DNA of 34,142 nt from an uncultured bacterium. Lineage in GTDB: Bacteria; Bacillota_I; Bacilli_A; RF39; UBA660. The notes beneath the pieces were generated by a model. That model searched no databases, was not told the origin of the DNA, and was given only the letters and a program-made list of their open reading frames with translations. The first letter of the stretch is position 1; each line of letters opens with the position of its first letter. Location: assembly GCA_900314225.1 (NCBI GenBank), contig OMUM01000185.1, positions 1-34,142 of the forward strand, given 5' to 3'. The position numbers were made by a program, and so were the translations under genes. Below, in pieces: positions 13,232 to 30,024 of this stretch.

Positions 13232-13246
13232 AATGGAGTTGATTAT

Positions 13247-14952: not shown

Positions 14953-14969
14953 AAATTTATTATAAAATA

Positions 14970-14998
14970 TTGATAATATTTAATAAATTTGATAAAAT
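14970..14998 (+). promoter_or_regulatory. sigma-A-type promoter P2 in front of the Flp-like pilin gene
   Basis: TTGATA (14970-14975), 17-nt spacer, extended -10 TGaTAAAAT (14990-14998). The -10 block is the same as in P1. Confidence 0.6.
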
Positions 14999-15032
14999 AA
15001 AAATGATTATCATGAAAGGATAGGTGATATTA

Positions 15033-15182
15033 ATGAAGGCAGCAACAGGTGAATTAAACTTGACTGTAATTACGTTATTAGCAATCGCAGCAGTTATAGC
15101 TTTTTTCTGGCTAATGTTCCCACAAATACAAAAATCAATAAATTCTCAATGGAATAATATTTCTACATATAAAGGAGATTAA
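15033..15182 (+). CDS. Flp-like small pilin candidate (49 aa; absent from the ORF track because it is shorter than 60 aa)
   Basis: My translation is MKAATGELNLTVITLLAIAAVIAFFWLMFPQIQKSINSQWNNISTYKGD. AAAGGATAGGTGA lies upstream. The gene has its own promoter and sits between the tadC-like and tadE-like genes. The protein has a short leader ending in Gly followed by a hydrophobic helix. Confidence 0.55.
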   Translation: MKAATGELNLTVITLLAIAAVIAFFWLMFPQIQKSINSQWNNISTYKGD

Positions 15183-15194
15183 TAGGAGTTATTT

Positions 15195-15617
15195 ATGAGG
15201 GAATCTTTTAGTGGTATTGTAAATATTTTCTTTATTGCTATTTTTCTTGTAATAATATCTGGAATATTGGCTTTGATTGTTTCATATACAAAAGCATTTA
15301 AAATGAAGAATATTATTATTTCCACTATAGAACAATATGAAGGATCAGGATGTACAAATGATTCTTCTTATTGTTATAAAAAGATACAAGAAAGAGCTAA
15401 AAATTATCGATATAATGTTGGCAATTTAAAATGTCCTAATGATTTTTCAAAAGTTGGAAATTTGTATTGTATTAAAGAAACACATAACAAAGATAATAAA
15501 TATTTCTATACAGTTATAACTAGAGTTGATTTCTATTTTCCTGTAATTAGCGATTTTTTTAGTTTTAATTTTTTTGAAACATCTGGGGATACACAAGAAA
15601 TTGTAAAACCTAGTTAG
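15195..15617 (+). CDS. TadE-like pseudopilin (paralog 1)
   Basis: TAGGAG ribosome-binding site. The N-terminus is MRESFSG/IVNIFFIAIFLVIISGILALIV. It shares the block YTKAFKMKN-II-T-E-Y-G and a conserved four-Cys pattern with 15629-16111. Confidence 0.55.
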   Translation: MRESFSGIVNIFFIAIFLVIISGILALIVSYTKAFKMKNIIISTIEQYEGSGCTNDSSYCYKKIQERAKNYRYNVGNLKCPNDFSKVGNLYCIKETHNKDNKYFYTVITRVDFYFPVISDFFSFNFFETSGDTQEIVKPS

Positions 15618-15628
15618 AAGGTGGTTAT

Positions 15629-16111
15629 ATGAGTGATAGTCTTGGCGGAACAGTAGTAATCGTAATTATTGTTGTTTTTATCACATTAGTTTCTGGATAT
15701 ATGGCTTTTAATATTAATTATACTAAAGCTTTTAAAATGAAAAATAAAATTATCGATACTTATGAGAAATACAATGGTGCATGTAATACGGCGACAGACT
15801 GCAATAAAGAAATAGAAAATTATGCTAAAGAAATTGGATATAATACAGAAAGATTTAATTGTTCAAAAGGTACAGCTCATGGTACTATTGGTAAGTATTG
15901 TGTTTATGAAGTCACAGTAGCTAGTGAATATAGTGAATCGGATAAAAACGCAATATTTAATGGCAATGATTTTTGCGACGATTATAGAAAATATTATGAA
16001 ATTACAACAAAACCAGAGACACCAAAAATACCAATATTTTATTACTTTTTTAGAAATACAGGTTATTTTTCTGTTTCAGGAAATACAAAAATTTTATGTA
16101 ATGATGGATAA
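15629..16111 (+). CDS. TadE-like pseudopilin (paralog 2)
   Basis: GAAGGTGG ribosome-binding site. The N-terminus is MSDSLGG/TVVIVIIVVFITLVSGYMAF. It carries the same conserved block and Cys pattern as 15195-15617, plus two extra Cys. Confidence 0.55.
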   Translation: MSDSLGGTVVIVIIVVFITLVSGYMAFNINYTKAFKMKNKIIDTYEKYNGACNTATDCNKEIENYAKEIGYNTERFNCSKGTAHGTIGKYCVYEVTVASEYSESDKNAIFNGNDFCDDYRKYYEITTKPETPKIPIFYYFFRNTGYFSVSGNTKILCNDG

Positions 16112-16133
16112 ATAAAAAGGAGGTTGGTAAACT

Positions 16134-17147
16134 GTGAATGTTATTGTAGCAAATGAACAACAAAATCAACTTTCTAATTTAGATATCGATATAATAAAAA
16201 GTATTTCAGGAGTTTATGAAGCTTATGAAATAGTTGAAATGTTTAAAAATTTTTTCTTTAATATGATGATTTTAGATGTTACAGCATTAAAAAATTATAA
16301 AGATATTAGAACATATGAAGTTCTAGCAAGTGGCTTAGAACCAAGTAAAATTATATTTTTATTACCTGAAGGAAGTGAGATAACAACACCTAATTTTTTA
16401 TCACACCTTATTTCACTAAAAATATATAATTTTACTACCAATGTAAATGGAATAAATTATTTATTAAAAAAAAGAAATACATTAAAAGATGTAGAACAAA
16501 TAGTTAAAATGGCAAACATGAAAGATTCTAGCGATACTGGTGCCGCTGTAGCAACTATTTCAAAAAATAATTCAAACAAAGTTATTCATATATTAGGAAT
16601 TAAAAATATAACAGATGGTGCTGGAGCAACGACATTTATATATCTTTTAAAGAAAGAATTATCATTAATTTATGGTAAAGAAAATATAGTTGCCATCGAG
16701 ATTGATAAGAACGATTTTAAATTGTTTGTTGAAAAAAATATGTACTCAACTGATCACGATAATTTAAATAATTTATTATCCAAATTTTCAAGTTCAAAAG
16801 TAATATTAGTCGATTTAAATAATTATACTGATGAAAGTTTTTGTAATGATATAATTTATTTAATTGAACCGAGTACAATTAAATTAAATAGATTAGTTAG
16901 AAAAGATAGAAATATATTTACTAGGCTAGTTAATAAAAAAGTTGTCTTAAATAAAAGCTTACTATTAAATAATGATATTTATGACTTTGAGAGTGAAGCA
17001 GGAATAAAAGTTTTCTATAATATGCCACCTCTTGATGAAAGAAAAAGAAATTCAATAGTTCATGATTTTTTAAATAAATTAGGCTATTTTGAAGAAGATC
17101 ATGAAAATAATAATTCTTCAAAAATATTTGGATTATTTAGAAGATAA
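16134..17147 (+). CDS. TadZ/CpaE-like (ParA/MinD-fold) pilus localisation protein with a degenerate P-loop
   Basis: GTG start with AAGGAGG at 16117-16123. There is an N-terminal pseudo-receiver-like region. The P-loop position reads ILGIKNITDGAGATTF and lacks the signature Lys residues of GxKGGxGKTT. The gene lies at the end of the Tad block. Confidence 0.5.
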   Translation: MNVIVANEQQNQLSNLDIDIIKSISGVYEAYEIVEMFKNFFFNMMILDVTALKNYKDIRTYEVLASGLEPSKIIFLLPEGSEITTPNFLSHLISLKIYNFTTNVNGINYLLKKRNTLKDVEQIVKMANMKDSSDTGAAVATISKNNSNKVIHILGIKNITDGAGATTFIYLLKKELSLIYGKENIVAIEIDKNDFKLFVEKNMYSTDHDNLNNLLSKFSSSKVILVDLNNYTDESFCNDIIYLIEPSTIKLNRLVRKDRNIFTRLVNKKVVLNKSLLLNNDIYDFESEAGIKVFYNMPPLDERKRNSIVHDFLNKLGYFEEDHENNNSSKIFGLFRR

Positions 17148-17151
17148 ATAA

Positions 17152-17181
17152 TTGACAAAATTAGTATTATAATTATATAAT
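17152..17181 (+). promoter_or_regulatory. sigma-A-type promoter P3 in front of the T4SS module
   Basis: TTGACA (17152-17157), 18-nt spacer, TATAAT (17176-17181). Confidence 0.6.
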
Positions 17182-17234
17182 TATTTTAGTAAATATTGTT
17201 TTTAGCAATAAAATTTAGATAGGAGTTGATTTAG

Positions 17235-17546
17235 ATGGATCTTGATGCATGTGGTGGTTTACTTCCAATTGTTAAGGTTATTAGACAAGGACTTTTTCCT
17301 TTATTTCAAATAGGTATTCCAATAGTTTTAATTATATATGGAACAATTGATTTAGGTAAGGCAGTAATTGCTAGTGATGAGAAAGAAATAAAAGCCGCTC
17401 AAAGTAGATTAATAAAAAGATTTATATATGCTGCTATGGTATTCTTTGTAACTACCTTAGTTTCAGTTTTAATGAACATGATTTCAAAAGGTGGAGAAGG
17501 AGATACAACAAGTTGGAAATCATGCTGGAGAGCTGCTGGTAATTAG
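17235..17546 (+). CDS. VirB2/TrbC-like T4SS pilin-like protein (leaderless paralog)
   Basis: TAGGAG ribosome-binding site, with an in-frame TAG immediately upstream of the ATG. The 103-aa protein has two TM helices separated by a charged loop (ASDEKEIKAAQSRLIKRFIY). It aligns with 17621-17989, including the terminal Cys residues. Confidence 0.6.
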   Translation: MDLDACGGLLPIVKVIRQGLFPLFQIGIPIVLIIYGTIDLGKAVIASDEKEIKAAQSRLIKRFIYAAMVFFVTTLVSVLMNMISKGGEGDTTSWKSCWRAAGN

Positions 17547-17554
17547 TATTTTTA

Positions 17555-17582
17555 AAAAATAGTATTCTTACTATTTTTTTTG
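17555..17582 (+). terminator. weak hairpin plus T-run after the first pilin-like gene (possible partial terminator)
   Basis: aaaaatagta (17555-17564) pairs with tactattttt (17569-17578) around a ttct loop, and the T-run continues to 17581. An extended -10 TGtTATAAT (17583-17591) follows immediately. Confidence 0.4.
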
Positions 17583-17620
17583 TGTTATAATTTATGATAT
17601 AATAATGTCGGAGTGATTTC

Positions 17621-17989
17621 ATGAAAAATATTAAATCTTTTGTTTTTGTAATATTAACCAGTTTGTTAATCGTTCTACCATTAAATTCTTACGCTACAGA
17701 TTGTAGTGGATTATTAGGTAATCCTAATGACGAAAACAGTGTCGCTTGGTTAATTCAAACACTTTTAAATTATACAAGAATATTAGGCCCTCTTGCAGTT
17801 ATTATTTTAAGTAGTATTGATTTTGCTAATGTTATTATCCGTAGTGATGATGATGCAATGGCTAAAGCAAAGAAAAAGTTAATAAGAAGATTAATTATAA
17901 CTGCTTTACTTTTCTTCGTTCCAACAATAGCAAATGTATTACTAAATATATTTGGTATTACAGGTAATCCAACTTGTGGAATAAACTAG
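17621..17989 (+). CDS. VirB2/TrbC-like T4SS pilin-like protein (with Sec signal peptide)
   Basis: GGAGTGA ribosome-binding site and signal peptide ...LPLNSYA/TDC. Two TM helices flank the charged loop RSDDDAMAKAKKKLIRRLII. The C-terminus is NPTCGIN. Confidence 0.65.
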   Translation: MKNIKSFVFVILTSLLIVLPLNSYATDCSGLLGNPNDENSVAWLIQTLLNYTRILGPLAVIILSSIDFANVIIRSDDDAMAKAKKKLIRRLIITALLFFVPTIANVLLNIFGITGNPTCGIN

Positions 17990-18010
17990 AGGCAAATGAG
18001 GTGATATTTT

Positions 18011-20185
18011 ATGATAGAATCTGATTTAAGTGCACAAAATATAATTCTTGATGGAATTAGAAAAATCTTTTCCCTTCTAGATTTAGTTTTTTTTAATTTA
18101 ATGAATTTTATGTATCAACTATTTTTTAATGTCGCTTCTGCCGATATATTTAGTAATGATATGATACTAAAATTTTATGGTCGTATTCAGGTAATACTAG
18201 GAGTCTTTATGATGTTTCAATTGACTATGTCAATATTAAGAGGAATAGTTAATCCAGATGAATTTTTTGAAAGTGGAAAAGGGGTTAATGGAAGTGGATT
18301 TTCATCTATCATTATGAGAATTGTAACATCTCTTTTAATGCTTGCATTACTTACTCCAATTAGTATTCCAAATGCTAGTAATGAATATGAAAAACAGATA
18401 AATAATAATGGAATATTATTTGGTACATTATATTCTTTACAACACAGAATTCTTGCTAACAACACCTTAGGAAGACTAATTTTAGGTAATGAGAGTACTC
18501 AATCAAATTTATTAGATGATGATTCTGAAAATGATAGTGATAGTGAACTGGCAAAATCTTCTAGGACATTTACTTCCACAATTGTAAAAACTTTTTATAA
18601 AATAAATTTATTACCAGAAGATAAGAGAGCTAATCATTCAACTGATGGTGATGATGCTGGAGATCCAGAAAATAGAGTTTGTAGTGGTGATATAGATCAA
18701 GGCGGTTTTTTGACTAATTATAAGAAAGAAGATTCTGATTTTAACGAAATTATATTATCAGTTAATGATACTTGTGATACTAGCAGCATTCCATTTTTCA
18801 ATGCTATTTCAAAAGCTTTAAAATCATTAATTGGAAGTAATCATTATTTAGTTGCTTATACTTATTTCTTAGGAGGAGTAACTGCATTAATTTTTTCAGC
18901 AATTTTGCTTTCTTTCACAATAGATGTTGCTATACGAGCAATTAAGTTAGCTATACTGAGATTAATTGCTCCAATTCCAATTATTAGTTATATGGATCCT
19001 AAACAAGGAAAAGATGGCTCATTCAAGGCCTGGACAAAAACATTATCTACAACATATCTAGATTTATTTTTAAGATTATCAATTATCTACTTTGCCTTCT
19101 TCTTAATAGAAAGTATAATGACAGGTGGTTTACAAATTAATACAACTAGTGGTATAGTTGGAGGATTATCAACATTAATCATTTATATTGCTATATTTAT
19201 ATTTGCCTTCCAAGCACCTAAGTTTATTAAAGAAGCATTAGGTATAAAAGATAGCTTTAGTTTATTTGGAGGATTTGGTTCTATTTTAGGTGGTGCTGCA
19301 CTTGCTGCTGGAACTATTGGTTCAGCAGTAACTGGTGCCCGTTCTAGTTGGGCAGTAACGAGAGATGGAGAAGGAATCCATAAATTTGGTGCATTAAATG
19401 TAGGTCGAGCTATAGCCGGTGGAATAGCAGGTGGAGTTACTGGGGTTAGTGCTGCAGCTAAAGCTTTGAGTAGTGCTAAAGATCATCCTGGAAGTGCTGT
19501 AATACAAGCTTATCAAAAACAAAATGCTGCAAAGTATTCTCAAGGTGATGCTGGTTCAACATTGTTTGGTCGTATCGGAACAACAGCTACAAGATTATTT
19601 ACCGGTGAATCAACTGCTTCTAGAAATGAAAGAAACATTTCTAATCTTGAAGCTAGACAAAGTGCTTTGGATGCTATTAAAAAGCGTGTTAGTGGAGAAA
19701 TGGTAAAACAAGATTGGACATATGGTTCTTTAGGAATTAATGATAATAGAGGAAATACAATTGGAAATGTAAATTATAAAAGTTTTATGGCAGAGTATGA
19801 GGCTGCAAAATCTAGAGGTGATGGTATAGTAAGATTTACTGATCAGTCTGGTACACAGCACGAGATAAGTTTTGCCGATGCTGATCGTCAAAAGGGATAT
19901 TTGCTTAAAAACAATGAGGATAGTTATATTAGAGAAATTGTTAATGGCACTAATGGACATACTGATGTTGAACTTACAAGTTTGATTCAAGATGCTCAAG
20001 CAAAAGGTGGAGCTTACTTATATGATAGTGTCACTAATTCATATCTTTCTAATACTAGTGGTGGTGTTATTAACTCTAGGGATTCTTATACAAAGACATC
20101 AGAAGGTATTGGACAAGAAATTCGTGATGCTAAACGTGCAAATTCTAAGGCTAAGGCTGATGATATGTATGCTGGTAAAAAATAA
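18011..20185 (+). CDS. VirB6/TrbL-like polytopic T4SS channel protein with a long soluble C-terminal domain
   Basis: GAGGTGA ribosome-binding site. The 724-aa protein has multiple TM helices across the first 460 aa or so, including Gly-rich helices (GGFGSILGGAALAAGTIGSAVTGA). A hydrophilic tail of about 250 aa follows. Its position between the VirB2-like and VirB3/VirB4-like genes is canonical. Confidence 0.6.
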   Translation: MIESDLSAQNIILDGIRKIFSLLDLVFFNLMNFMYQLFFNVASADIFSNDMILKFYGRIQVILGVFMMFQLTMSILRGIVNPDEFFESGKGVNGSGFSSIIMRIVTSLLMLALLTPISIPNASNEYEKQINNNGILFGTLYSLQHRILANNTLGRLILGNESTQSNLLDDDSENDSDSELAKSSRTFTSTIVKTFYKINLLPEDKRANHSTDGDDAGDPENRVCSGDIDQGGFLTNYKKEDSDFNEIILSVNDTCDTSSIPFFNAISKALKSLIGSNHYLVAYTYFLGGVTALIFSAILLSFTIDVAIRAIKLAILRLIAPIPIISYMDPKQGKDGSFKAWTKTLSTTYLDLFLRLSIIYFAFFLIESIMTGGLQINTTSGIVGGLSTLIIYIAIFIFAFQAPKFIKEALGIKDSFSLFGGFGSILGGAALAAGTIGSAVTGARSSWAVTRDGEGIHKFGALNVGRAIAGGIAGGVTGVSAAAKALSSAKDHPGSAVIQAYQKQNAAKYSQGDAGSTLFGRIGTTATRLFTGESTASRNERNISNLEARQSALDAIKKRVSGEMVKQDWTYGSLGINDNRGNTIGNVNYKSFMAEYEAAKSRGDGIVRFTDQSGTQHEISFADADRQKGYLLKNNEDSYIREIVNGTNGHTDVELTSLIQDAQAKGGAYLYDSVTNSYLSNTSGGVINSRDSYTKTSEGIGQEIRDAKRANSKAKADDMYAGKK

Positions 20186-20199
20186 TATAAAGTTGGAGT

Positions 20200-20529
20200 G
20201 TGATACATGTGTATAATAACTATTTAATCCCTGCCAATACTAAGAGGGGACAATTAATATTAGGTATTTTTAGACCAATAGATTTATATTTATTTGGTAG
20301 TGGAGTATTTGTAACAATTATATTGCTTGCTTTTTGTCCATTGTCATCAACAGCCGTTACAATTCTCGTTTTAAGTCCGGCTTTAATTACTGCGTTTTTG
20401 GTAATGCCGGTACCATATTATCATAATATGTTAGTTGTTATATTAGAGGCTTATCAGTTTTTTACTAATAGGCAAACATATAGATGGAAAGGTTGGTGTT
20501 ATAAAAGTGGCAAAACAAGGAAGCGTTAG
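20200..20529 (+). CDS. PrgI/VirB3-like small T4SS membrane protein
   Basis: The N-terminal segment IPANTKRGQLILGIFRPIDLYLFGSG followed by two TM helices is the PrgI-family pattern. The true start may be GTG 20209, because GGAG at 20195-20198 is too close to 20200. The ORF overlaps the next one by 23 nt. Confidence 0.6.
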   Translation: MIHVYNNYLIPANTKRGQLILGIFRPIDLYLFGSGVFVTIILLAFCPLSSTAVTILVLSPALITAFLVMPVPYYHNMLVVILEAYQFFTNRQTYRWKGWCYKSGKTRKR

Positions 20530-21058
20530 TGGTTTTACAGAAGATTGGTTACCTGTAAGAGCTATTCAAAATAATATGATTATTACAAGAAATGGATTTA
20601 AAGTTACAGGAGTTAAAATTACTCCTAAAAATATATTTATTTTAGATCCAGATACACAAGATAATATACTAATTGGTCTAAGAAACTTCTACAATACAAT
20701 AGACTATGAATTTTGGCTAGTTGTTGCCGATAGACCAGTTGATATATCAGTTTATATGTCTCAAATGCAATTACTTCTTAATGAAACAACATCTCCAGCA
20801 GTCAGAAAACTTATTTTACAAGACATAGATAAAGGAGAAAAATTCATTAGAAATAATGTTGTCGACACAGAGTATTATTTCTTATTTAAATCAAAGGATA
20901 CAGATTTATTACAGAAACGTGTTAGACAAATGATTAATGGACTTGCTACTTGTGGAATGAATGCATCTCTTGCAAGTAATTCTGATTTAAGATTAATACT
21001 TGAAAACTTCCTTAATGGAGGTAATACTACAGAGTTTGGAACGGTGATGCCAGTATGA
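20507..21058 (+). CDS. VirB4-family ATPase, N-terminal fragment encoded as a separate ORF
   Basis: GTG start. The segment EDWLPVRAIQNNMIITRNGFKVTGVKITPKNIFILDPDTQDNILIGLRNFYNTIDYEFWLVV matches the characteristic N-terminus of Gram-positive VirB4/TraE-like proteins. The stop overlaps the next start (ATGA, 21055-21058). Confidence 0.7.
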   Translation: MAKQGSVSGFTEDWLPVRAIQNNMIITRNGFKVTGVKITPKNIFILDPDTQDNILIGLRNFYNTIDYEFWLVVADRPVDISVYMSQMQLLLNETTSPAVRKLILQDIDKGEKFIRNNVVDTEYYFLFKSKDTDLLQKRVRQMINGLATCGMNASLASNSDLRLILENFLNGGNTTEFGTVMPV

Positions 21059-22851
21059 GTATAGGTTTAAGAAGTCAATTAGCACCTAAGGGGCTAGATT
21101 TTAAAAGTGATCCAAGTTCTTTCTTTATTAGTGATAAATATGCAACTATATTAACTGTTGTATCATATCCGAAGTATATTTCACCAGGTTATTTATCATC
21201 TCTTACTAACATGTCTGGAATAAAGGTTGTAATTAAACACATCCCCGTTCCCTTTCAAGATATGGCTAAAATGTTAAATAAACAAGTAGCTGATTTGAAA
21301 GAAAGATATCAAAATGAAAGAGATCAGACCGTAAGAGAAAGAATTAGACAAGATGCCGAAAGTTTGGAATATTTTACTTCAATGCTTGCTGGTAGTCAGG
21401 CTCGTATTTTCGACTTTCAAATGCATATCATGATTACAGCTGATACTAAAGAAGATCTTGAATTAAAAAAATTAAATGTTAAAAATTATCTTGACGCCAT
21501 GGAATTAAAAGCAGTAGCCTTAAGATTTGAACAAGAAAAAGTATTAAAATCAATTATTCCTGTTTTCCCATCTCAAGATATTGAGCAAAGAATTGGAACT
21601 CCAATTCCATCTGTTACAATCAGTGCCATGTATCCATTCATATTTGATAGTTTAAAAGATCCAGGCTTATCTACTTTACTTGGTGTAGATTTTTCTGGTG
21701 GAGTAATTCTATTCAATCAATTCTTATATAAAATACGTAAAGAAAATAATAGAAATAATGCAAATATGATTATTCTTGGAACATCTGGTTCAGGTAAAAG
21801 TACAGCAGCTAAACTTCTTTTAAGAACACATATTAGAAATGGTTGTCAAATAGTCATAATTGACCCTGAAGATGAATTCAGAGAAATTACCAGATCATTT
21901 GGAGGAGACACTGTTGATATTGGTAAAGGTGGAGAATATGGACTTATTAATCCACTTGAAATTGTTATAGATGCTGATGAAGAAGAAATTAGACAAGGAC
22001 TTGGCTATACAGTTTTGACCAGAACCCTTCAATTTTTAAAAGCATTTATGAAATACTATGATCCTTCAATTGAAGAATCTGTTCTAACAATGTTTTCTGA
22101 AGTTGTTCAAGATACATATAAAAGATTTGGTATAGATTTTAATACAGACTTTTCTAGATTTACCTCAGCTGATTATCCTACTTTTAGTGATGTGTATGCA
22201 ACTATAAAAGGTCGACTTATGTCAATGACTGAACAGTCACAAGAACGCGATATTATGGAAAAACTAGAACTAAAAGTTAGGCCGATTACAAAAGAATTAA
22301 GATTCTATTTTGATGGTCATACAACTTTGAAAAAAGGTAGCGATTTCATGGTATTTAATATTAAGGAATTAATGAACAGTGATTCTAATGTAAGAAATGC
22401 CTTATTCTTTAATGTATTAAAATATGCTTGGGGACTATGTCTAGATTTCAACGTTGATACAGTATTAATGGTTGATGAAGCACACGTATTATTAGGTGAC
22501 AATAATGCTCTAGGTGCTGACTTTTTAGCACAAGTTCAAAGACGTGCTCGTAAATATAATACAGGAACAATAATAATCACCCAGCAACCTTCAGACTTTT
22601 CTGATCCTTCTGTTATTACACAAGGTAAAGCAATTTTTGATAACTCATCATATTATCTTGTTATGGGACTTAGAAAGCAAGCTGTTGAAGATTTATCAAA
22701 ATTAATTGATTTAAATGAAAGTGAAAAAGAAAGTATAAAACATTATTCTCAAGGAGAGGCCTTATTTGTATGTGGAAATAGAAGAATGAGAATTAATGTT
22801 GCGGTTACGCAAGAGGAACTAGACTCCTTTGGTATCGGAGGCGGTTTCTAA
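21055..22851 (+). CDS. virB4: VirB4-family T4SS ATPase, C-terminal part with the NTPase domain
   Basis: GGTGA ribosome-binding site at 21043-21047. Walker A is ILGTSGSGKSTAAKL and Walker B is VLMVDEAHVLL. The two ORFs give 183 + 598 aa, which together equal the usual length of about 780 aa. Confidence 0.88.
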   Translation: MSIGLRSQLAPKGLDFKSDPSSFFISDKYATILTVVSYPKYISPGYLSSLTNMSGIKVVIKHIPVPFQDMAKMLNKQVADLKERYQNERDQTVRERIRQDAESLEYFTSMLAGSQARIFDFQMHIMITADTKEDLELKKLNVKNYLDAMELKAVALRFEQEKVLKSIIPVFPSQDIEQRIGTPIPSVTISAMYPFIFDSLKDPGLSTLLGVDFSGGVILFNQFLYKIRKENNRNNANMIILGTSGSGKSTAAKLLLRTHIRNGCQIVIIDPEDEFREITRSFGGDTVDIGKGGEYGLINPLEIVIDADEEEIRQGLGYTVLTRTLQFLKAFMKYYDPSIEESVLTMFSEVVQDTYKRFGIDFNTDFSRFTSADYPTFSDVYATIKGRLMSMTEQSQERDIMEKLELKVRPITKELRFYFDGHTTLKKGSDFMVFNIKELMNSDSNVRNALFFNVLKYAWGLCLDFNVDTVLMVDEAHVLLGDNNALGADFLAQVQRRARKYNTGTIIITQQPSDFSDPSVITQGKAIFDNSSYYLVMGLRKQAVEDLSKLIDLNESEKESIKHYSQGEALFVCGNRRMRINVAVTQEELDSFGIGGGF

Positions 22852-22871
22852 AATAAATATTTAAGTGTTAG

Positions 22872-25211
22872 GTGGTGGTATCAGTGGCAAAGCAAAATAA
22901 TCAAACAAGTGAAGAAAATGAAACAGCACGAGCTAATAAAAATAATGCTAATAATATAAGAAATGCTGCTGATATTGCTATAGCTTCAAAGAATCCATAT
23001 GCTATGGCTGCTGGTGGAGCTGTTAAAGCAGCTGATAAATTAACCGGTGGAAAAGCATCTGAAGCCTTAGGTAAAGCACTAACGCATGCTAACAGTAGCA
23101 TGCCTGGAGGAAATCTACGACAAAAAGCTTTAAATAATATAAATGAAAGTGGTTTGGGAGACAAAGTAGGAAAAGCTGTCTCAATGAAAAATCAAATGGC
23201 TGGTAAAAATGGTACTAGTAAAGCCAATGAAGATTCTAAGCCAAATAATACTGAAAAAAGCAATAAAAATAACAATCAAAATAATATTCCTACTAATAAT
23301 GCAAATACTTCTGGAGGAGAACAAAACAGTTCTCCTTCTTCTAGTACACCAAGAGCTCCTTTTAGAGATAGCTTTTTTGACAAGCATAAAAATGATAATG
23401 CGAAAGATGATTCTGCTAAATCTAAAAGTTCTGGAATTTTTTCTGGAATGGGAACAATAACAAAAGTAATAATCATTTCCTACTTTCTTGGGATACTTGG
23501 TATTATTCTTTTTATAATATTGATACTAAGCATTGTAAATTCTAATATATCTAATTATGATGACGCTTTTGGTATTAGCCAAGAAATGGGAGAAGAAACA
23601 GGCAACTATATCCATGGTGGAAGTACAGAACAAAATGATTTTTATAAAAGAATTAATAATGTTAAATTAAGCTATCAAGCAGAAGGAAAATCAATAGATG
23701 GTTTGAAAATAGTTGCTGTTTATACTATTTTGAAAAAAAATGGAGCAAATGTTAGCTATGACAAATTTGGCGAATCAGAAATCAAAGAAATTGCCGACGC
23801 CATGTTTGATGAAAGTAATACATATAATGAAGAAACATTTAAAAACAATTTAATTAACAACATATTTCCTAAATATTTGCCTGAGTCTACTAAAAGTGAA
23901 AGAAAAAATATGGCTGATGATGTTTTCGAGTATATAGATAATTACTATAGTCTGATTGGAAAAGAAAAAAATAGTGATTCTGTCTGTTCATCTACTGGAA
24001 GTTGTAGTTATAATATAAAAGGTTATTATATTAATGGAAAAGGTAATGTTAAAGAAGATATTCAAATAAGCAATTTATATGTTAGATTGATGCAATGTGG
24101 AACAGGAAATGGACATAATTATGGTGGTACTTTTGGACAACCATTAGAAGGTGAAGAATTAGTTCCATTTGAAAAATATGTTTTAGGAGTTGCCTATCAA
24201 GAAATTGGACCAAGTTCACCAAAAGAAGCAATTAAAGCACAAATGATTGCAGCAAGAAGCTTTATATTGGCTCGTCATGCTGATATGGGTGGATGGAGAA
24301 CCTTAAAAGAAGAAAGTGATGGCAAATGGGTTTTACAAGTTGCAGCTTGTACACAAGATCAAGTATATTGTGATCCAGATAAAGGTTGCTCTGGAACTGA
24401 TGGACAATGGGGACAAGTATATAGTGGATTAGGACACGGTTCATTTCAAAGAGCTGCCATGGCCAAAGATTCACCGCTTAGAACCTATGCTAATGAAACC
24501 GCCGGAGAAGTGCTAGTAAATAATCAAGGCTATATAGTATACACAGATTATGGATCAACAATTCAAAATAAATTTATAAGTTTAGCTAAATCAGGTCTTG
24601 ATTATAAGCAAATATTATTACAGGTCTATGGTGGACAAAAGCATAATGCTTCTAGTATCCAAAAAAACAACTGTGGTGGTTCATCTTGTGTCAATGCTGC
24701 CAGTGGAGATTATGCTAATTGGAAGCAATATCAAGGTTCTTGGATTAATGTTCAAGTTGGTAATAGCGGTAGAACAATTAAAGATATTGGTTGTTTAGTT
24801 ACATCTGTATCAATGCAAATAGCAAGAAGTGGAGTTCAAACAAATATTTCAAACTTTAATCCTGGTACTTTTGTAGAGTATCTAAATTCTCATGGAGGAT
24901 TTGCCTCAGGTGGAAACTTTGTATGGTCAGCCGCAACATCCGCTGCTCCTTCATTTAAATTTGTTGGTAAAGCAAGTCTTTCAGGATTATCAAAAGATCA
25001 AAAATTAAATAAAATAAAAGAAGTAGTTAATCAAAGTGAAGTATATGCGGTAGCAGAAGTTAAAGGTAATACTGGACAACATTGGGTAGCAATTGATAGA
25101 GTAGAAGGCGATAAAGTTTATATGATGGACCCAGGAAGTACAGCAACTGATATGTGGGCACAATATCCTTGGTCAAATACTTCAGAAATAGCTTACTATA
25201 GAGTAGGATAG
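22872..25211 (+). CDS. membrane-anchored bifunctional cell-wall hydrolase (SpoIID/LytB-like domain plus papain-fold C39-like or CHAP-like cysteine peptidase domain); VirB1 functional analog
   Basis: The start is GTG 22872 or GTG 22884, after AGGTGGTGG. It has a low-complexity N-terminal region of about 195 aa and a TM (VIIISYFLGILGIILFIILILSIV). The SpoIID signature is YVLGVAYQEIGPSSPKEAIKAQMIAARSFILAR...CTQDQVYC...TAGEVLV. The C-terminal domain has Cys (DIGCLVTSVSMQIA), His (GQHWVAID) and Asp (YMMDPGS). Confidence 0.75.
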   Translation: MVVSVAKQNNQTSEENETARANKNNANNIRNAADIAIASKNPYAMAAGGAVKAADKLTGGKASEALGKALTHANSSMPGGNLRQKALNNINESGLGDKVGKAVSMKNQMAGKNGTSKANEDSKPNNTEKSNKNNNQNNIPTNNANTSGGEQNSSPSSSTPRAPFRDSFFDKHKNDNAKDDSAKSKSSGIFSGMGTITKVIIISYFLGILGIILFIILILSIVNSNISNYDDAFGISQEMGEETGNYIHGGSTEQNDFYKRINNVKLSYQAEGKSIDGLKIVAVYTILKKNGANVSYDKFGESEIKEIADAMFDESNTYNEETFKNNLINNIFPKYLPESTKSERKNMADDVFEYIDNYYSLIGKEKNSDSVCSSTGSCSYNIKGYYINGKGNVKEDIQISNLYVRLMQCGTGNGHNYGGTFGQPLEGEELVPFEKYVLGVAYQEIGPSSPKEAIKAQMIAARSFILARHADMGGWRTLKEESDGKWVLQVAACTQDQVYCDPDKGCSGTDGQWGQVYSGLGHGSFQRAAMAKDSPLRTYANETAGEVLVNNQGYIVYTDYGSTIQNKFISLAKSGLDYKQILLQVYGGQKHNASSIQKNNCGGSSCVNAASGDYANWKQYQGSWINVQVGNSGRTIKDIGCLVTSVSMQIARSGVQTNISNFNPGTFVEYLNSHGGFASGGNFVWSAATSAAPSFKFVGKASLSGLSKDQKLNKIKEVVNQSEVYAVAEVKGNTGQHWVAIDRVEGDKVYMMDPGSTATDMWAQYPWSNTSEIAYYRVG

Positions 25212-25219
25212 GTGATAAA

Positions 25220-25996
25220 ATGGATAATAAAAAAACTTATATATTTTTAATGACAATAGTTATAGCCTTTGGAATAATAATGTATTTTGTCTTTGCTAAA
25301 CCAAATATTAAAAGTGGGAAAGATTCAGCTACTTTTATTGTAGGAGATAATACTATTTGGAAATATAATAATAAAAAATGGCTAAATATTACATTATCAT
25401 CTTCTATAAAAAAACTAAATTGGCAAAAATATAAAGTTTTTTCTGATAATAAATTTCTTGGTACCTATCAACTAATGTATAATGATAAATGGTATGCTTT
25501 TACTGATAAAAATAAAGCAGTAAATTTAAATGGAAAAATTTTTGCTTATAAATCAAATTACAATATTAATTTATTGCAATTTGAAAGTAAAGAAATAACT
25601 CCTGATGATTACGTTTATCAAGTATTATCTAATAATAATATTAGTTTATCAAGTAAGCTTACATCATTATCAAAAACTGATATTGATTTTGATAATGATG
25701 GAAAGCTAGAATCATTTTATATAGTTAGTAATGCCTTTGCTGATAATTTTAGTCCTGAATATACATTTGCTTTTGTATTTATGGTAAAAGATAAACAGAT
25801 ATATGAAATATATAAAGACATAAGTAAAAATGAATTTTATAATGGTTGTAAACCATATTTTACATCTTTTTTAGATATTAATAATGATAATATATATGAG
25901 TTTATTTTAAGTTGTGGAAAATATAGTATAGAAGAAGAAGTCAATATGTTATATCAACTTGATAATGATAACTTTAAAATATTAATTTCTAATTAA
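25220..25996 (+). CDS. N-terminally anchored extracytoplasmic protein, function unknown (positional candidate for a VirB8/TcpC-like scaffold)
   Basis: AGGTGA ribosome-binding site and TM IFLMTIVIAFGIIMYFVF. There are two Asp/Asn-rich loops, DFDNDGKLE and DINNDNIYE. I recognise no diagnostic motif. Confidence 0.5.
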   Translation: MDNKKTYIFLMTIVIAFGIIMYFVFAKPNIKSGKDSATFIVGDNTIWKYNNKKWLNITLSSSIKKLNWQKYKVFSDNKFLGTYQLMYNDKWYAFTDKNKAVNLNGKIFAYKSNYNINLLQFESKEITPDDYVYQVLSNNNISLSSKLTSLSKTDIDFDNDGKLESFYIVSNAFADNFSPEYTFAFVFMVKDKQIYEIYKDISKNEFYNGCKPYFTSFLDINNDNIYEFILSCGKYSIEEEVNMLYQLDNDNFKILISN

Positions 25997-26002
25997 TAAA
26001 TA

Positions 26003-26031
26003 ATGACATTAGTTAAAAGTTACGTTATAAT
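26003..26031 (+). promoter_or_regulatory. sigma-A-type promoter P5 in front of the coupling-protein gene
   Basis: aTGACA (26003-26008), 17-nt spacer, TATAAT (26026-26031). Confidence 0.6.
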
Positions 26032-26057
26032 AAAAACTAGAAAGGGAGTAGTGATAT

Positions 26058-28397
26058 ATGAAATTAAAATTGAGGATAGATTCAGATGATTTATTAATTT
26101 TTATTGTATTCGCAATCTTTTTACTTTATATAGTTGCTATTGGTGTAGTTAATGTTCATTCGTTTGCTACACAAGGAGTTTTATCAGGATTAAATCCTTT
26201 TCCAGCATTTGCTCCCGAAACTATTTTTTCAACATTTGTAGTTTATTTTGTTTGCATTTTAATTCTATTATTAAGTGTAAGCTCTTATATTTTTGATAGA
26301 GATAAAGGTTTTGGAATAACTACTGATAAAAAGGATAAAGGATATTCTAGATGGGCCAAAGATAAGGAAATGAAAGAAGAATTGGAATGTGTAAAAATTA
26401 CCCAAAAAAATTCAAAAGCTGCTGGGATCCCTCTTATTTTGAATGATGAAGAAATGTGGGTTGATAATGGTGAATACCATTCTCTAGTAATTGGTGCTAC
26501 TGGATCAGGTAAAACACAAACCGTAGTCTTACCAATGATTTATAGTTTAGCTAAAGCACGCGAATCTATGATTATTACCGATCCAAAAGGTGAACTTTAT
26601 GAAAAGACAAGTAATATGCTTAGATCTCGTGGTTATCAAATATTACTTTTAAATTTTCGTGATCCACAAAGTGGTAATGCCTGGAATCCAATGACATTAC
26701 CATATCAAATGTATAAAAATGGAAATCAAGATAAGGCTATAGAGTTACTAGATGATTTGGCTATGAATATACTATATGATCCTTCAAATAAAAACGCTGA
26801 TCCATTCTGGGAAAAAACTTCAGCAGATTATTTTGCCGGTGTTTCACTTGGTTTATTTGAAGATGCTAAACCAGATGAAATAAATATTAATAGTGTTAAT
26901 CTTGTAACAACTGTCGGTGAAGAAAAGTTTGGTGGTTCTACTTATATAAAAGAATATTTTAATGCTAAGGATCCAGCCAGTCCAGCAGCAGTTGATGCAT
27001 CAAGTACAATCATGGCTCCAAACGAAACAAAGGGTAGTATTTTATCAGTATTTAAGCAAAAGGTTAAGTTATTTGCATCACGTGAAAACTTATCAGAAAT
27101 GCTTTCACATAGTGATATTAATTTGGAGTCTATTGGTGAGAGACCAACTGCTGTGTTTATTGTTATCCAAGATGAAAAAAAGACATATCATGCCTTAGTT
27201 ACAATCTTATTAAAGCAAATATATGAAACTTTAATCGCAACTGCACAAAGACATGGTGGACAACTACCAGTAAGAACAAATTTCTTGCTTGATGAATTTG
27301 CTAATATGCCACCATTAAAAGATGTCACAACAATGATTACCGCTGCTCGTTCTAGAAAAATTAGATTTACAATGATAATTCAAAACTTTGCTCAATTAGA
27401 TGATGTATATGGTAAAGAAGAAGCAGAAACTATCAGAGGTAACTGTGGTAACATTATTTACTTAATTACAACAGAACTAAAAGCTCTAGAAGAAATATCA
27501 AAAATGTGTGGTGAAGTAAAGTCTAAAAAGGATGACAAAACAGCTTCAACTCCACTTGTAACAGTTTCAGACTTACAAAGAATGAAACAATTTGAAGTAA
27601 TAATTTTACGTATGCGTAAACAACCATTTAAAACTAAATTTACTCCATTTTTCAAGTTAAATTGGGGAAGAAAATATCCAGTTGCTAAATATCCATTAAG
27701 AAAAAAACAAGAAGTACATACTTTTGATATAAAGACATTTGTTAAAGAACAAAAGAAGAAAAAATTACTTGAAATGATGAATGCAGCTGACGAAGAGGAT
27801 AAAATAAATCAATCTTTACCTGGAAATAGGGAAAATCAGATGCATAATGCACTCCCTCCAGAGTTACAAGCAATTCGTAATAATAGAAATAATAATAATA
27901 ATAGTGTTCCTGAATTTTTTTCAAATAAAAATAATTCTAGTAATAAAGATATTCCTGATTTTGAAACATTTAAAAGGCAAATGGAACAAAGCAATCCTTT
28001 TGAACCAAAAATAAATAATAATAATTTTGCAACAACACCAGTCAGTCAGACAGCACTTACTGAAAACGATAATGATGACGATATAGATTTTGATGTAGAT
28101 GAATTAGTTAAGAAGATAGATGCAAAAATTGCCGAACTTGAAGCTGAAGAGAAGAAAGAAGCAGAAGAAAAAAAGCAACAAGAACAAGCTACTTCAACTA
28201 CAGCCCCAACTACTGTTGCAACAACACCTATTAATAGTATTAATTCTATTTATAATACTTCAGAAAACCAACAGGTATCTAATAAAAATATTCCTGATGT
28301 TTCTAGTAAACAGGCAGAATCTAGTCCTCAAACATCAGATCTAAACTTGGATGATGATGACGATGATGATTTCTTTGATGATTTTTTTGATAGTTAG
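26058..28397 (+). CDS. virD4: VirD4/TraG-family type IV coupling protein with a long low-complexity acidic C-terminal tail
   Basis: AAGGGAG ribosome-binding site and two N-terminal TM helices. Walker A is VIGATGSGKTQTVVLP and Walker B is NFLLDEFANMPPL. The segment RSRKIRFTMIIQNFAQL is present. The last 210 aa or so are N/E/D-rich and end DDDDDDDFFDDFFDS. Confidence 0.88.
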   Translation: MKLKLRIDSDDLLIFIVFAIFLLYIVAIGVVNVHSFATQGVLSGLNPFPAFAPETIFSTFVVYFVCILILLLSVSSYIFDRDKGFGITTDKKDKGYSRWAKDKEMKEELECVKITQKNSKAAGIPLILNDEEMWVDNGEYHSLVIGATGSGKTQTVVLPMIYSLAKARESMIITDPKGELYEKTSNMLRSRGYQILLLNFRDPQSGNAWNPMTLPYQMYKNGNQDKAIELLDDLAMNILYDPSNKNADPFWEKTSADYFAGVSLGLFEDAKPDEININSVNLVTTVGEEKFGGSTYIKEYFNAKDPASPAAVDASSTIMAPNETKGSILSVFKQKVKLFASRENLSEMLSHSDINLESIGERPTAVFIVIQDEKKTYHALVTILLKQIYETLIATAQRHGGQLPVRTNFLLDEFANMPPLKDVTTMITAARSRKIRFTMIIQNFAQLDDVYGKEEAETIRGNCGNIIYLITTELKALEEISKMCGEVKSKKDDKTASTPLVTVSDLQRMKQFEVIILRMRKQPFKTKFTPFFKLNWGRKYPVAKYPLRKKQEVHTFDIKTFVKEQKKKKLLEMMNAADEEDKINQSLPGNRENQMHNALPPELQAIRNNRNNNNNSVPEFFSNKNNSSNKDIPDFETFKRQMEQSNPFEPKINNNNFATTPVSQTALTENDNDDDIDFDVDELVKKIDAKIAELEAEEKKEAEEKKQQEQATSTTAPTTVATTPINSINSIYNTSENQQVSNKNIPDVSSKQAESSPQTSDLNLDDDDDDDFFDDFFDS

Positions 28398-28411: not shown

Positions 28412-29647
28412 ATGAATACAAATTTTAATATCGTAAAAAAGCCTAAAAAAGATGATGACATTGAACTTGAAGAAGATGAAGAGGAAGAAGAAATAGAAGA
28501 AGATTCTGACTCAAATACAAAAGCAAAATCTAATTCAATGGATGATTTAAAAAAAAGAATGTTCTTATTAATGGGAATTATTATTGGAGGAACTATTCTT
28601 CTATTAATTATCCTTTACATAGCTTCTTTAGCAACACCAAAAACTTACAGCTATGAGACCATTGAAAACATTATGACTACAGCTGCTAAATCATATTTTA
28701 AAGATAATTCTACATATTTACCAAAAGAAGATGGTGATGTCGTAGAAGTTGATGTTACCAATTTAGTTGCTGGTGGATATATGAAGGATTTAAGTGAATA
28801 TACTAAAGAGGGAGTATCATGTAGTGGTACTGTTCAAGTAGGAAAATCTGGTTCTGAATATTCATATACACCTACATTAAATTGTGGAGAAGCATATTCA
28901 ACTACAAAATTATATGAAAAAATAATTAATGATGATAATATTGTTACATCTGGATATGGCTTATATTCTAGAAATGGTTCATATGTTTATCGAGGAGAAG
29001 AAGTTGATAATTATGTTCAATTAGATAATTCATTATGGAGAATTGTTAAAGTAACTTCAAATAAAAATATTGTCCTTATCAGCGAAGGTCTACAAAGTGG
29101 ACAACCATGGGATGATAGATATAATGAAACTAGTAGTTATGCTGCAGGTATTAATACATATAGTGCAAGTAGAATTAAAGAATATTTAGATAAAATTTAT
29201 AAGAATCCATCAGAAAAAGATAATGAAAAAATTTTATCAAAAGGAGATAAAGCCAATTTAGTATCATATAATATTTGTACTGGTAAAAAGCCTGAAACAT
29301 CTAGTGCCTTTGATAATGTTGAAGAGTGTTCAGATCACTTAAATAATCAAAAATTAGGACTACTTACAGTCTCTGATTACGTTTATGCTAGTATTGATCC
29401 AAATTGTAAAACAATTACCAGCAAGACTTGTCAAAACTATAATTACTTAGATATAAATAAAGCTTGGTGGTTAGTAACAGCAAATTCTGCTAATACTGTA
29501 TCCGTTTACAAAGTTGATAATAGTGGTAATGTTAAATCAAGTGAAGCTAATACTTACGCTATAGTTAGACCAGTTATTTACTTAGATAGTAAAGTTTTAT
29601 ATAAGAGTGGTAATGGTACAGAACAAAAGCCATACAAAATTAGATAG
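28412..29647 (+). CDS. N-terminally anchored surface protein, paralog of 5100-6911 (acidic cytoplasmic N-tail, Cys-pair domain, W-W-L...VRP module)
   Basis: AAGGAGG ribosome-binding site and acidic N-terminus DDDIELEEDEEEEEIEEDSD. The TM is MFLLMGIIIGGTILLLIILYIA. It shares with 5100-6911 the pattern AA--YF--NS--LP...C...V-V-K...L-CG, and its end AWWLVTANS...AIVRPVIYL...GNGTEQKPYKIR is also related. Confidence 0.7.
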   Translation: MNTNFNIVKKPKKDDDIELEEDEEEEEIEEDSDSNTKAKSNSMDDLKKRMFLLMGIIIGGTILLLIILYIASLATPKTYSYETIENIMTTAAKSYFKDNSTYLPKEDGDVVEVDVTNLVAGGYMKDLSEYTKEGVSCSGTVQVGKSGSEYSYTPTLNCGEAYSTTKLYEKIINDDNIVTSGYGLYSRNGSYVYRGEEVDNYVQLDNSLWRIVKVTSNKNIVLISEGLQSGQPWDDRYNETSSYAAGINTYSASRIKEYLDKIYKNPSEKDNEKILSKGDKANLVSYNICTGKKPETSSAFDNVEECSDHLNNQKLGLLTVSDYVYASIDPNCKTITSKTCQNYNYLDINKAWWLVTANSANTVSVYKVDNSGNVKSSEANTYAIVRPVIYLDSKVLYKSGNGTEQKPYKIR

Positions 29648-29701: not shown

Positions 29702-29986
29702 ATGAAAAATATTAATATTAATAGTTTATTATTGATAAATAATCCTAAGATAATTGATATTAGAAGTAATTATAATTTTATAAATGGACATATACCAGGA
29801 TCAATTAATATAACTAGTTCTGAATTATTAAATAATTATAAAAAATATTTAAATAAAAATGAAACTTATTATATATATTGTCAATCTGGCAGTAGAAGTA
29901 AATTAATTGTCAATGAATTAAGTAAACTAGGGTTTAAGGTAATAAATATTAATGGTGGCTATAATGCTTACTTGTTTAGATATTAA
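29702..29986 (+). CDS. single-domain rhodanese-like sulfurtransferase
   Basis: AGGTGA ribosome-binding site, 94 aa, active-site loop YYIYCQSGSRS (C-x4-R) and the C-terminal motif INGGYNAY. Confidence 0.85.
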   Translation: MKNININSLLLINNPKIIDIRSNYNFINGHIPGSINITSSELLNNYKKYLNKNETYYIYCQSGSRSKLIVNELSKLGFKVININGGYNAYLFRY

Positions 29987-30024
29987 ATTTATAATATAAT
30001 TATTCATAGAATAGAAGGTGTATT

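Follow-up and report, generated by a model that had tools for sequence, protein, structure and literature searches.

Why does an uncultured bacterium of the order RF39 keep among its core genes a type IV secretion system (T4SS) that has a coupling protein and neither a relaxase nor an integrase beside it? The question is raised by contig OMUM01000185.1 (assembly GCA_900314225.1), whose whole stretch of 34 kb (34,142 nucleotides, ~27% GC, nearly all genes on the + strand) is called the window here, and whose positions 17152-28397 encode a monoderm T4SS like those of mating-pair formation class FATA (MPF-FATA). A Tad-like pilus module adjoins this T4SS. The reading that we prefer, with a probability of about one half, is that the locus encodes an envelope machine which is non-mobile, is inherited vertically and belongs to the core of the RF39 lineage; in it a T4SS exapted from MPF-FATA stock, permanently coupled to the Tad-like pilus, would serve contact-dependent delivery. 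A preliminary description, drawn from the letters of the window, had suggested a domesticated, non-mobile T4SS in a monoderm. That suggestion is well supported, because no relaxase or integrase was found just outside the window, because the relatives do not carry the locus variably between att junctions, and because purifying selection acts more strongly on its core genes than on their housekeeping neighbours.

Position and inheritance of the locus

Pfam and NCBIfam profiles were scanned against every open reading frame (ORF) of the window of at least 90 aa, and no family match to a relaxase, a tyrosine or serine recombinase, a DDE transposase or a Rep protein was obtained, just as the preliminary description had stated for the 34 kb. 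It had also seen no direct repeats around the block, and the repeat search of the window indeed returned only low-identity, AT-rich chance matches as candidate att or direct repeats. Scans of the window for tRNA genes and for Rfam families gave none of either. Contigs with identical VirD4 and GreA proteins, taken with their precomputed Pfam annotation, show a further 10 kb beyond either end. They carry a rhomboid gene, ireB, ruvX, yceG/mltG, a methyltransferase, NlpC/P60, two peptidase U32 genes and an HD protein upstream, and gatCAB and aspS downstream; no relaxase, integrase, recombinase or transposase is annotated within 10 kb of either window end. These flanks hold core genes, and neither an integrase nor a relaxase, which the preliminary description had named as the mark of an ordinary integrative and conjugative element (ICE), lies just beyond the window.

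In a collection with one genome per GTDB species, at least 584 stretches hold VirB4 relatives, and the best 80 (84-97% identity) were analysed, gene order being read wherever the contig reaches far enough. A metagenome scan queried with the pilus ATPase yielded 29 long loci; with the sortase as metagenome query there were no confirmed relatives, its peptide patterns being low-complexity. Identities to the window are median amino-acid identities over the best 80 species loci unless the metagenome is named. Throughout these 80 loci the order is CpaB-like gene, ATPase, two platform-like genes, pilin-like genes, TadZ-like gene, B2a, B2b, VirB6, VirB3, TrsD, VirB4, a slot with hydrolase and small transmembrane (TM) protein, VirD4, DUF6273, rhodanese and rmuC. 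The 29 metagenome loci add the upstream part, in the order greA, TM protein, DUF6273/Ig protein, sortase-like gene, Cys-rich protein, DUF5411 and CpaB-like gene, onward to VirB4. Variable presence with att junctions, the second observation that was to speak for an ICE, is therefore not what we see, the same position and order being kept in the 80 genome and 29 metagenome loci. No extra gene recurs in the 80 loci, in particular no relaxase or integrase, and their unmatched ORFs are differing downstream neighbours, swapped surface parts or sporadic insertion sequence elements. The adjacency to rmuC is kept in 68 of the 80.

The layout of the window is as follows.

881-1351: greA, core gene upstream of the block
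1356-3263: dxs, between greA and the TM protein in the window
3314-4888, + strand: polytopic membrane protein with DUF4352-like ectodomain (Pfam DUF4352 0.0044, weak)
5100-17147, + strand: pilus-type module
5100-6911, + strand: membrane-anchored surface protein, Ig-like plus DUF6273 (Bact_surface_Ig-like 3e-18, DUF6273 6e-07), syntenic in 28 metagenome loci
17235-28397, + strand: T4SS module
28412-29647, + strand: DUF6273 membrane-anchored surface protein with acidic cytoplasmic N-terminus (DUF6273 1.1e-4, slightly under the cut-off)
29702-31107: rhodanese gene and rmuC, in the orientation of the block and directly downstream
downstream of rmuC, minus strand: trpS
32430-33350: Amidoligase_2 gene, between trpS and the rhomboid gene

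The functional unit is ~3314-29647, Tad-like pilus module included, and so is larger than first described. Its first gene encodes the TM protein (44% median identity in 28 of the 29 metagenome loci), with greA directly 5' in all 15 metagenome loci that show greA; its last gene, for the DUF6273 protein at 28412-29647 (48% identity), follows VirD4 directly in 73 of 80 loci, and its product is a paralogue of the surface protein at 5100-6911. Core genes do flank the block, as had been claimed, and they continue for 10 kb further out; the claim fails for dxs, which has no match at the position between greA and the TM protein in any of the 29 metagenome loci and is therefore a lineage-specific neighbour rather than a conserved flank. 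A fixed, non-mobile locus, which conservation of position was expected to reveal, is what the relatives have, with greA in place of dxs as the upstream neighbour. The pilus-plus-T4SS block measures 24-26 kb, ~1.8% of a 1.4-Mb genome.

VirB4 has a median identity of 88% over the 80 species loci, compared with 79% for rmuC, 74% for TrsD and 73% for trpS, and its nonsynonymous divergence (dN) is 0.095 against 0.161 for rmuC. Synonymous divergence is about equal in the T4SS genes and rmuC (pS 0.60-0.62), pseudogenisation is absent, and the ratio of nonsynonymous to synonymous divergence (dN/dS) is well below 1. Purifying selection on the core genes of the T4SS is thus stronger than on the housekeeping genes beside them. 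Pairwise identities of VirB4 and rmuC correlate among 66 species (Spearman 0.30; 0 of 500 permutations in a Mantel-like test reach the observed value). Beyond the clade, the nearest VirB4 clusters share 45% and 42% identity and the following ones at most 35%; those that are named all come from Bacillota/Mycoplasmatota (Thomasclavelia, Solobacterium, Erysipelotrichaceae, Clostridium, Desulfocucumis), none of them from Patescibacteria, the majority of clusters being nameless. Phage and plasmid collections hold distant VirB4 homologues only, at up to 29% identity, the best plasmid homologue being at 29%. The conservation, the equal pS, the VirB4-rmuC correlation and the distance of the outsiders argue together for a system that is old, under strong constraint and passed on vertically, and not for a circulating element. 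The cytoplasmic and membrane core is frozen, while the outward-facing parts (hydrolase domains, B2b ectodomain, surface proteins) diversify.

The locus is anchored in the order RF39 by the genomes deposited as 'Mycoplasma sp. CAG:877' (L054) and Ca. Faecimonas gallistercoris (L056), and its carriers are gut and rumen metagenome-assembled genomes (MAGs). An RF39-type locus was also seen on contigs deposited as Acidaminococcus fermentans (L041), Muribaculaceae (L072) and Clostridia (L086), which are probably mis-binned or mislabelled. Two observations concern the downstream neighbours. The Amidoligase_2 gene has no counterpart in the 80 species loci, was seen only in near-identical contigs and may be a recent acquisition; and for the rhodanese gene and rmuC there is no predicted terminator until the bidirectional hairpin at 31084-31107.

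Parts of the secretion system and of the pilus module

The T4SS module comprises the features below.

17152-17181, + strand: consensus sigma-70 promoter of the module, TTGACA-18-TATAAT (12/12 match)
17235-17546, + strand: VirB2-like hairpin protein B2a (9 of 23 orthologues match PF18895 T4SS_pilin)
17621-17989, + strand: VirB2-like protein B2b, with signal peptide, variable ectodomain and conserved hairpin (T4SS_pilin 7e-4, below cut-off)
18011-20185, + strand: VirB6-like channel protein, extended at its C-terminus by a hydrophilic part of 300 aa (TrbL_4 5.4e-08, above cut-off; 42% median identity)
20200-20529, + strand: VirB3/PrgI/TcpE-like small membrane protein (position, size, topology; 66% conserved)
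20507-21058, + strand: TrsD-like protein, a free-standing VirB4 N-terminal domain of 183 aa (PF26593 TraC-like; VirB4_plasma profile positions 103-276)
21055-22851, + strand: VirB4 ATPase, Walker A and B intact (P-loop_TraG 1.8e-12, AAA_10, DUF87)
22872-25211, + strand: VirB1-like wall hydrolase (SpoIID 3.2e-11)
25220-25996, + strand: membrane-anchored all-beta ectodomain protein with DxDxDG-type motifs (AlphaFold2 model, mean pLDDT confidence 92)
26003-26031, + strand: second promoter-like site, 5' of virD4 (11/12 match)
26058-28397, + strand: VirD4-type coupling protein (T4SS-DNA_transf 8.8e-57, TraG-D_C 3e-25)
28350-28394, + strand: acidic-aromatic VirD4 C-terminal motif, DDDDDDDFFDDFFDS

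Pfam and NCBIfam bear out the parts list of the preliminary description, with the provisos that the VirB2-like and VirB3-like calls are weak and that VirB4 turned out to be split. Of the two VirB2-like proteins in the window only B2b matches T4SS_pilin; among its orthologues 13 of 19 match PF18895 (best 1.9e-07), and the matches of B2a and B2b orthologues lie mostly under the gathering score. The two proteins are paralogous, with the common motif TM1-IDLGKAVI-SD(D/E)-K-A-RLI-R-TM2 and conserved terminal Cys residues. The ectodomain of B2b ranges from 0 to ~450 aa among species and is minimal in that of the window; B2b proteins of at least 200 aa were seen in 27 of 73 species (e.g., L083:5552-7255 and L046:5447-6952), and their ectodomains have no Pfam match. 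The VirB3-like call draws on faint matches to TcpE (4/25) and PrgI (2/25), 6 of 25 orthologues in all.

VirB4 is encoded by two genes, the TrsD-like fragment overlapping the ATPase gene by ATGA. The fragment was found in 78 loci and ends 4 nt past the VirB4 start in nearly all of 26 sampled orthologues; it corresponds to the 'TrsD' of pGO1 and of Patescibacteria (PMC12102498). The best NCBIfam model for the ATPase is that of the Mycoplasma ICE, NF045975 (6e-106, 355 bits, below the cut-off of 590). A match to the CedD profile in the window is weak (1e-11, far below its cut-off), and VirB7, VirB9 and VirB10 have no representative in the locus.

The wall hydrolase consists of a cytoplasmic Lys/Gly-rich N-terminus, a TM segment, a SpoIID domain and a C-terminal Cys/His domain, for the last of which a sequence search of the PDB gave nothing significant. 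Domain swapping has filled its slot differently from species to species, with SpoIID in the window and NlpC/P60, CHAP plus Phage_lysozyme2 or M23 plus Phage_lysozyme in others. In the swapped hydrolases (e.g., L068:11818-13578, L071:11804-13942 and L083:11873-14071) the Lys/Gly-rich cytoplasmic N-terminus and the helical region are retained. The neighbouring protein at 25220-25996, replaced in ~12 species, was considered as a VirB8 and rejected, its confident model being a TM helix plus an all-beta domain and not NTF2-like; it has no Foldseek match in the PDB with E <0.03 and no PDB sequence match. Apart from this rejected protein, no candidate for a VirB8-like (NTF2-fold) protein was identified in the locus.

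The coupling protein scores 308 bits against NF045973 (CD1115-family type IV coupling protein, T4CP), above the cut-off of 250. Its residues 1-560 are 84-100% identical across the top 120 protein clusters, and its ATPase part is ~82-85% conserved, while the median identity over the full length is 72%. The long acidic tail noted earlier is real and ends in a near-invariant motif: behind a disordered linker of ~200 aa, hypervariable in length and sequence, the peptide DDDDFFDDFFDN closes the protein, and only a few of 73 species depart from the C-terminus (D/E)n-FFDDFFD(N/S). A near-invariant tail after a variable linker amounts to a short linear motif on a tether, for which a conserved partner is to be expected; it resembles known acidic-aromatic docking tails such as that of F TraD or the C-terminus of SSB. 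Low-complexity Q/N/E/D-rich tails were seen after the ATPase domains of both VirD4 and the pilus ATPase (11780-13231).

Transcription of the module would start from the promoter whose first base is position 17152. Of 96 loci, 80 have a promoter with at most one mismatch per hexamer 5' of their first VirB2-like gene, as against 6 of 96 control segments. A site similar to the one upstream of virD4 occurs in 27 of 61 loci.

The pilus module, which begins with the surface protein at 5100-6911, continues as listed here.

6936-7763, + strand: sortase-like transpeptidase, class-B-like (Pfam Sortase 2.9e-06; TIGR03064 srtB 8.7e-15, below cut-off), syntenic in 29 metagenome loci
7744-10404, + strand: 886-aa secreted Cys-rich protein (no family match; syntenic, fast-evolving, 34% median identity)
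10423-10926, + strand: DUF5411 protein with a pilin-like N-terminal hydrophobic segment (DUF5411 3e-41; 59% conserved)
10938-11750, + strand: CpaB/RcpC-like pilus assembly protein (RcpC 1.8e-05, SAF; TIGR03177 pilus_cpaB 9e-10, below cut-off)
11780-13231, + strand: secretion ATPase (TadA/CpaF-VirB11-FlaI group) whose tail is rich in Q and N (T2SSE 2.4e-27)
13247-14149 and 14149-14952, + strand: two polytopic TadB/TadC-like platform proteins (position and topology only; 73-76% conserved)
15033-15182, + strand: unannotated gene of a 49-aa Flp-like pilin, whose product begins MKAATG and continues ELNLTVITLLAIAAVIAFFW...
15195-15617 and 15629-16111, + strand: two paralogous minor-pilin-like proteins (short leader, Gly, hydrophobic helix)
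16134-17147, + strand: TadZ/CpaE-like protein with receiver-like N-domain and ParA/SIMIBI-like domain, deviant P-loop (AlphaFold2 pLDDT 70)

The pilus ATPase has 83% median identity across species. Confirmation of the platform-like proteins as TadB/TadC by profile failed, with no family matches and a weak hhalign signal between the two (E 0.0015, probability 17%). The 49-aa pilin gene sits in a 243-bp 'intergenic' gap, uncalled by the gene callers of the source contigs; it lies directly 3' of the TadC-like gene in 96 of 97 loci, with 72-86% identity among the 25 matches listed. Its product has no canonical G/XXXXEY motif and is likely the major pilin. The minor-pilin-like genes that follow have a 42-nt repeat in common and are syntenic at 37-39% identity. 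For the last gene of the module, Foldseek matches ParA (3cwq), BcsQ (6yar), UreG and FlhF (probability ~1, E 1e-2 to 1e-3), and the predicted fold fits TadZ/CpaE with moderate confidence. The same protein was considered as a hidden relaxase and rejected, with no invariant His among its orthologues and a ParA/SIMIBI-like predicted fold.

Further upstream, the 886-aa Cys-rich protein may be a pilus-associated adhesin. The class-B-like sortase is conserved in the module, yet no window protein has an obvious C-terminal sorting signal.

In four species (L059, L063, L064, L075) a pair of extra genes, each for ~500 aa, sits precisely at the junction of the TadZ-like gene and B2a; this insertion point and the T4SS's own promoter mark the pilus and the T4SS as adjacent yet separate modules. 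The inserted pair looks by eye like a membrane protein and a FAD oxidoreductase.

Possible cargo and competing explanations

How might such a machine work? The Tad-like pilus and the surface proteins would bring the cell against a neighbour, and the VirB1-like hydrolase would open the wall. VirB3, TrsD, VirB4 and VirB6 would make up the membrane translocon, while the two VirB2-like proteins, one of them with a species-variable ectodomain, may form or anchor an extracellular conduit. The acidic-aromatic tail of VirD4 would recruit a cytoplasmic cargo or adaptor and feed it to the channel. The cargo that neighbouring cells receive would most likely be proteins, or else a different non-self-DNA substrate. 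That a coupling protein is present speaks for a substrate exported from the cytoplasm, since import systems of the ComB/Ced type work without one (PMC12857230). A non-conjugative, contact-dependent delivery or exchange is favoured because the block has no relaxase, because its promoter is of consensus type and because its ATPases are more conserved than the housekeeping neighbours; within it we favour protein export, with DNA exchange as the main rival.

The hosts are described as uncultured bacteria with highly reduced genomes that are devoid of fatty-acid synthesis and several amino-acid and vitamin pathways (PMC6784871). In the guts of humans and animals they rank with the most prevalent of the uncultured lineages that have reduced genomes. 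Ca. Faecimonas corresponds to the GTDB genus CAG-877 (family CAG-611, order RF39), and the type genome of Ca. F. gallistercoris has 1.4 Mb and 28% GC (PMC8035907); a peptidoglycan wall is predicted to be kept in most RF39 species (PMC10868615). In the literature searched we found no paper linking RF39 to a T4SS, pili, epibiosis or conjugation. That small genomes retain a 24-26 kb block with ATPases more conserved than rmuC and trpS suggests that RF39 depends on direct contact with other cells. Delivery would then serve an obligatory contact-dependent lifestyle of auxotrophic bacteria, analogous to the essential T4SS of epibiotic Patescibacteria. An extension that we consider doubtful goes further: RF39 bacteria would be obligately contact-dependent (epibiotic, parasitic or syntrophic), and the block would be an essential organelle, of a type that, uniting VirB2-like pilins with TrsD and VirB4 in a Bacillota T4SS, may have been the donor of the Patescibacteria T4SS, with the tail as a new recognition code for cargo or adaptor.

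The main rival is possible, if on the unlikely side. It holds that the block is a chromosomal DNA-exchange machine, in which the pilus aggregates conspecifics and the T4SS exports or imports DNA, either independently of a relaxase or through one encoded elsewhere, on the model of archaeal Ups/Ced or of Mycoplasma or mycobacterial chromosomal transfer (MCT-like). VirD4 is a genuine T4CP that has a TraG-D_C domain and exceeds the CD1115 conjugal-transfer cut-off, VirB4 is matched best by the profile of the Mycoplasma ICE ATPase, and rmuC, which is recombination-associated, lies co-oriented downstream with no predicted terminator before 31084. The acidic tail with terminal aromatics also recalls the tail of F TraD, which docks the relaxosome protein TraM. 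A conserved chromosomal pilus with a T4SS-like DNA system has a precedent in Ups/Ced (PMC11868833, PMC12857230). However, the conserved block is devoid of a relaxase, an oriT-like (origin of transfer) feature or a DNA-processing gene, and the known import T4SSs, ComB and Ced, have no coupling protein (PMC12857230), while VirB4 is more conserved than both housekeeping neighbours and the promoter is consensus-type. Gene-exchange machinery is usually repressed or inducible, and conservation of this degree combined with a consensus promoter is unusual for it.

It is improbable that the T4SS only builds a surface organelle, i.e., assembles a VirB2-type filament or displays B2b as an ectodomain adhesin and moves no cargo. 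Two VirB2-like genes, one with a species-variable ectodomain, and fast-evolving surface proteins of the block would suit such a role, and VirB4 serves as a pilus-biogenesis ATPase elsewhere (PMC12102498). Against it stands the VirD4 of the locus, with its well conserved ATPase part and near-invariant docking tail. Pilus biogenesis does not need a coupling protein. An ordinary or decaying ICE with its relaxase and integrase outside the window, for which one could invoke the T4SS parts, each of a type known from Gram-positive conjugative elements, is very improbable and was rejected on flank extension, repeat search and cross-species synteny: position and gene order are the same in the best 80 genome and the 29 metagenome loci, core genes occupy the 10 kb on both sides, att repeats and pseudogenisation are absent, dN/dS is well below 1, and synonymous divergence equals that of the flanking rmuC.

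Several points weigh against the contact-dependent delivery that we prefer. The assignment to Tad rests partly on context: the pilus ATPase scores about as well against VirB11 (1.5e-31) as against the TadA family (2.6e-30), both below cut-off, the TadB/TadC-like proteins have no match in Pfam (T2SSF), NCBIfam or the PDB, and a prepilin peptidase (TadV/CpaA), which may be encoded elsewhere, is absent from the window. To our knowledge, all characterised close relatives of these proteins move DNA, and VirD4 itself passes the NCBIfam cut-off of a conjugal-transfer T4CP family. The correlation between VirB4 and rmuC is modest at a Spearman value of 0.30. The entire data set consists of MAGs and metagenome contigs, and the absence of a relaxase holds for 54 kb (the window plus 10 kb per side), so that one may be encoded elsewhere in the genome. 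Finally, the analogy with Patescibacteria is imperfect, their T4CP being usually remote from the locus and non-essential in Southlakia.

Should contact-dependent delivery be correct, the block would be a Bacillota parallel to the Patescibacteria T4SS. Cell-to-cell contact would then be central to the biology of RF39, which could guide co-cultivation, and FFDDFFD at the C-terminus of VirD4 offers a defined short linear motif for a cargo or adaptor search. The known functions of Gram-positive T4SSs are nearly all DNA transfer, and dedicated effector translocation by them is, according to a review, a long-standing open question (PMC12857230).

Comparison with known systems

The T4SS resembles the MPF-FATA conjugative systems (pGO1, pIP501 and pCF10; the conjugative transposon, CTn, of C. 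difficile with CD1110/CD1115) in VirB4, TrsD, the VirB3/PrgI-like and VirB6/TrbL_4 proteins, the multi-domain PrgK/TraG/CwlT-like hydrolase and the VirD4-type T4CP. It differs in that the RF39 block is non-mobile and has no relaxase, oriT or genes for integration and excision. Conjugation operons are usually repressed, whereas the RF39 T4SS has a consensus promoter. The RF39 locus also has VirB2-like genes, in contrast to the MPF-FATA conjugative classes, which are reported to be without them (PMC12102498).

The Mycoplasma ICE (MICE; CDS5/CDS17; PMC6030558) matches in its VirB4 profile and in having no recognised relaxase, and its hosts are phylogenetic neighbours, Mollicutes and RF39 being related Bacilli. 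Unlike MICE, however, RF39 VirB4 reaches 355 bits where NF045975 has its cut-off at 590. MICE are mobile, have a DDE transposase (CDS22) and are without VirB1- and VirB8-like parts (PMC12857230), whereas RF39 has a hydrolase and no transposase.

Ups pili plus Ced of Sulfolobales also combine a conserved chromosomal contact filament with a relaxase-less VirB4/VirB6-type translocon (PMC11868833). This archaeal system occupies two separate loci, has no coupling protein, imports DNA and is induced by DNA damage (PMC11868833). The conserved VirD4 of RF39 sets its locus apart from ComB/Ced-type import, which does without a coupling protein (PMC12857230), and so do the parts: ComB has VirB7/9/10 and Ced has CedA/CedB, while VirB7, VirB9 and VirB10 are missing from the RF39 locus. 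In Streptococcus suis, the 89K type IV-like secretion system has the Gram-positive set VirB1/B3/B4/B6/B8/D4, and VirD4-dependent secretion of the protein effector SspA-1 has been reported (PMC12857230). 89K lies on a pathogenicity island, whereas the RF39 locus is lineage-core, includes VirB2-like genes and borders on a pilus module.

The closest analogue is the T4SS of Patescibacteria/Saccharibacteria (PMC10633639, PMC12102498, PMC12857230), in which Southlakia cannot grow epibiotically without its chromosomal T4SS, a relaxase-less one that includes pilins and TrsD (PMC10633639, PMC12102498, PMC12857230). Both are lineage-wide, chromosomal and relaxase-less systems of MPF-FATA ancestry in monoderms with reduced genomes; both have PF18895 VirB2-like pilin genes near virB4, a free-standing TrsD, VirB3 and VirB6, wall hydrolases 3' of virB4 and no structural homologue of VirB8. 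The Patescibacteria T4SS, too, co-exists with a type IV filament, which is required for host contact. The differences are equally clear. VirD4 of RF39 is in the locus, highly conserved and tailed; there are two pilin-like genes where Patescibacteria have arrays with as many as 11; a pilus module of Tad-like type lies physically next to the T4SS; and the host is of the Bacillota, as are the named nearest VirB4 relatives, and not of the Patescibacteria. An origin of RF39 VirB4 inside the Patescibacteria clade is unlikely, since the named nearest outside clusters are all from Bacillota/Mycoplasmatota, at no more than 45% identity. VirB2 subunits have not been found in Gram-positive T4SSs except those of Patescibacteria, according to a review (PMC12857230). 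Beside this exception the RF39 locus would be the second monoderm case, independent of the first, in which a T4SS with no relaxase has been exapted.

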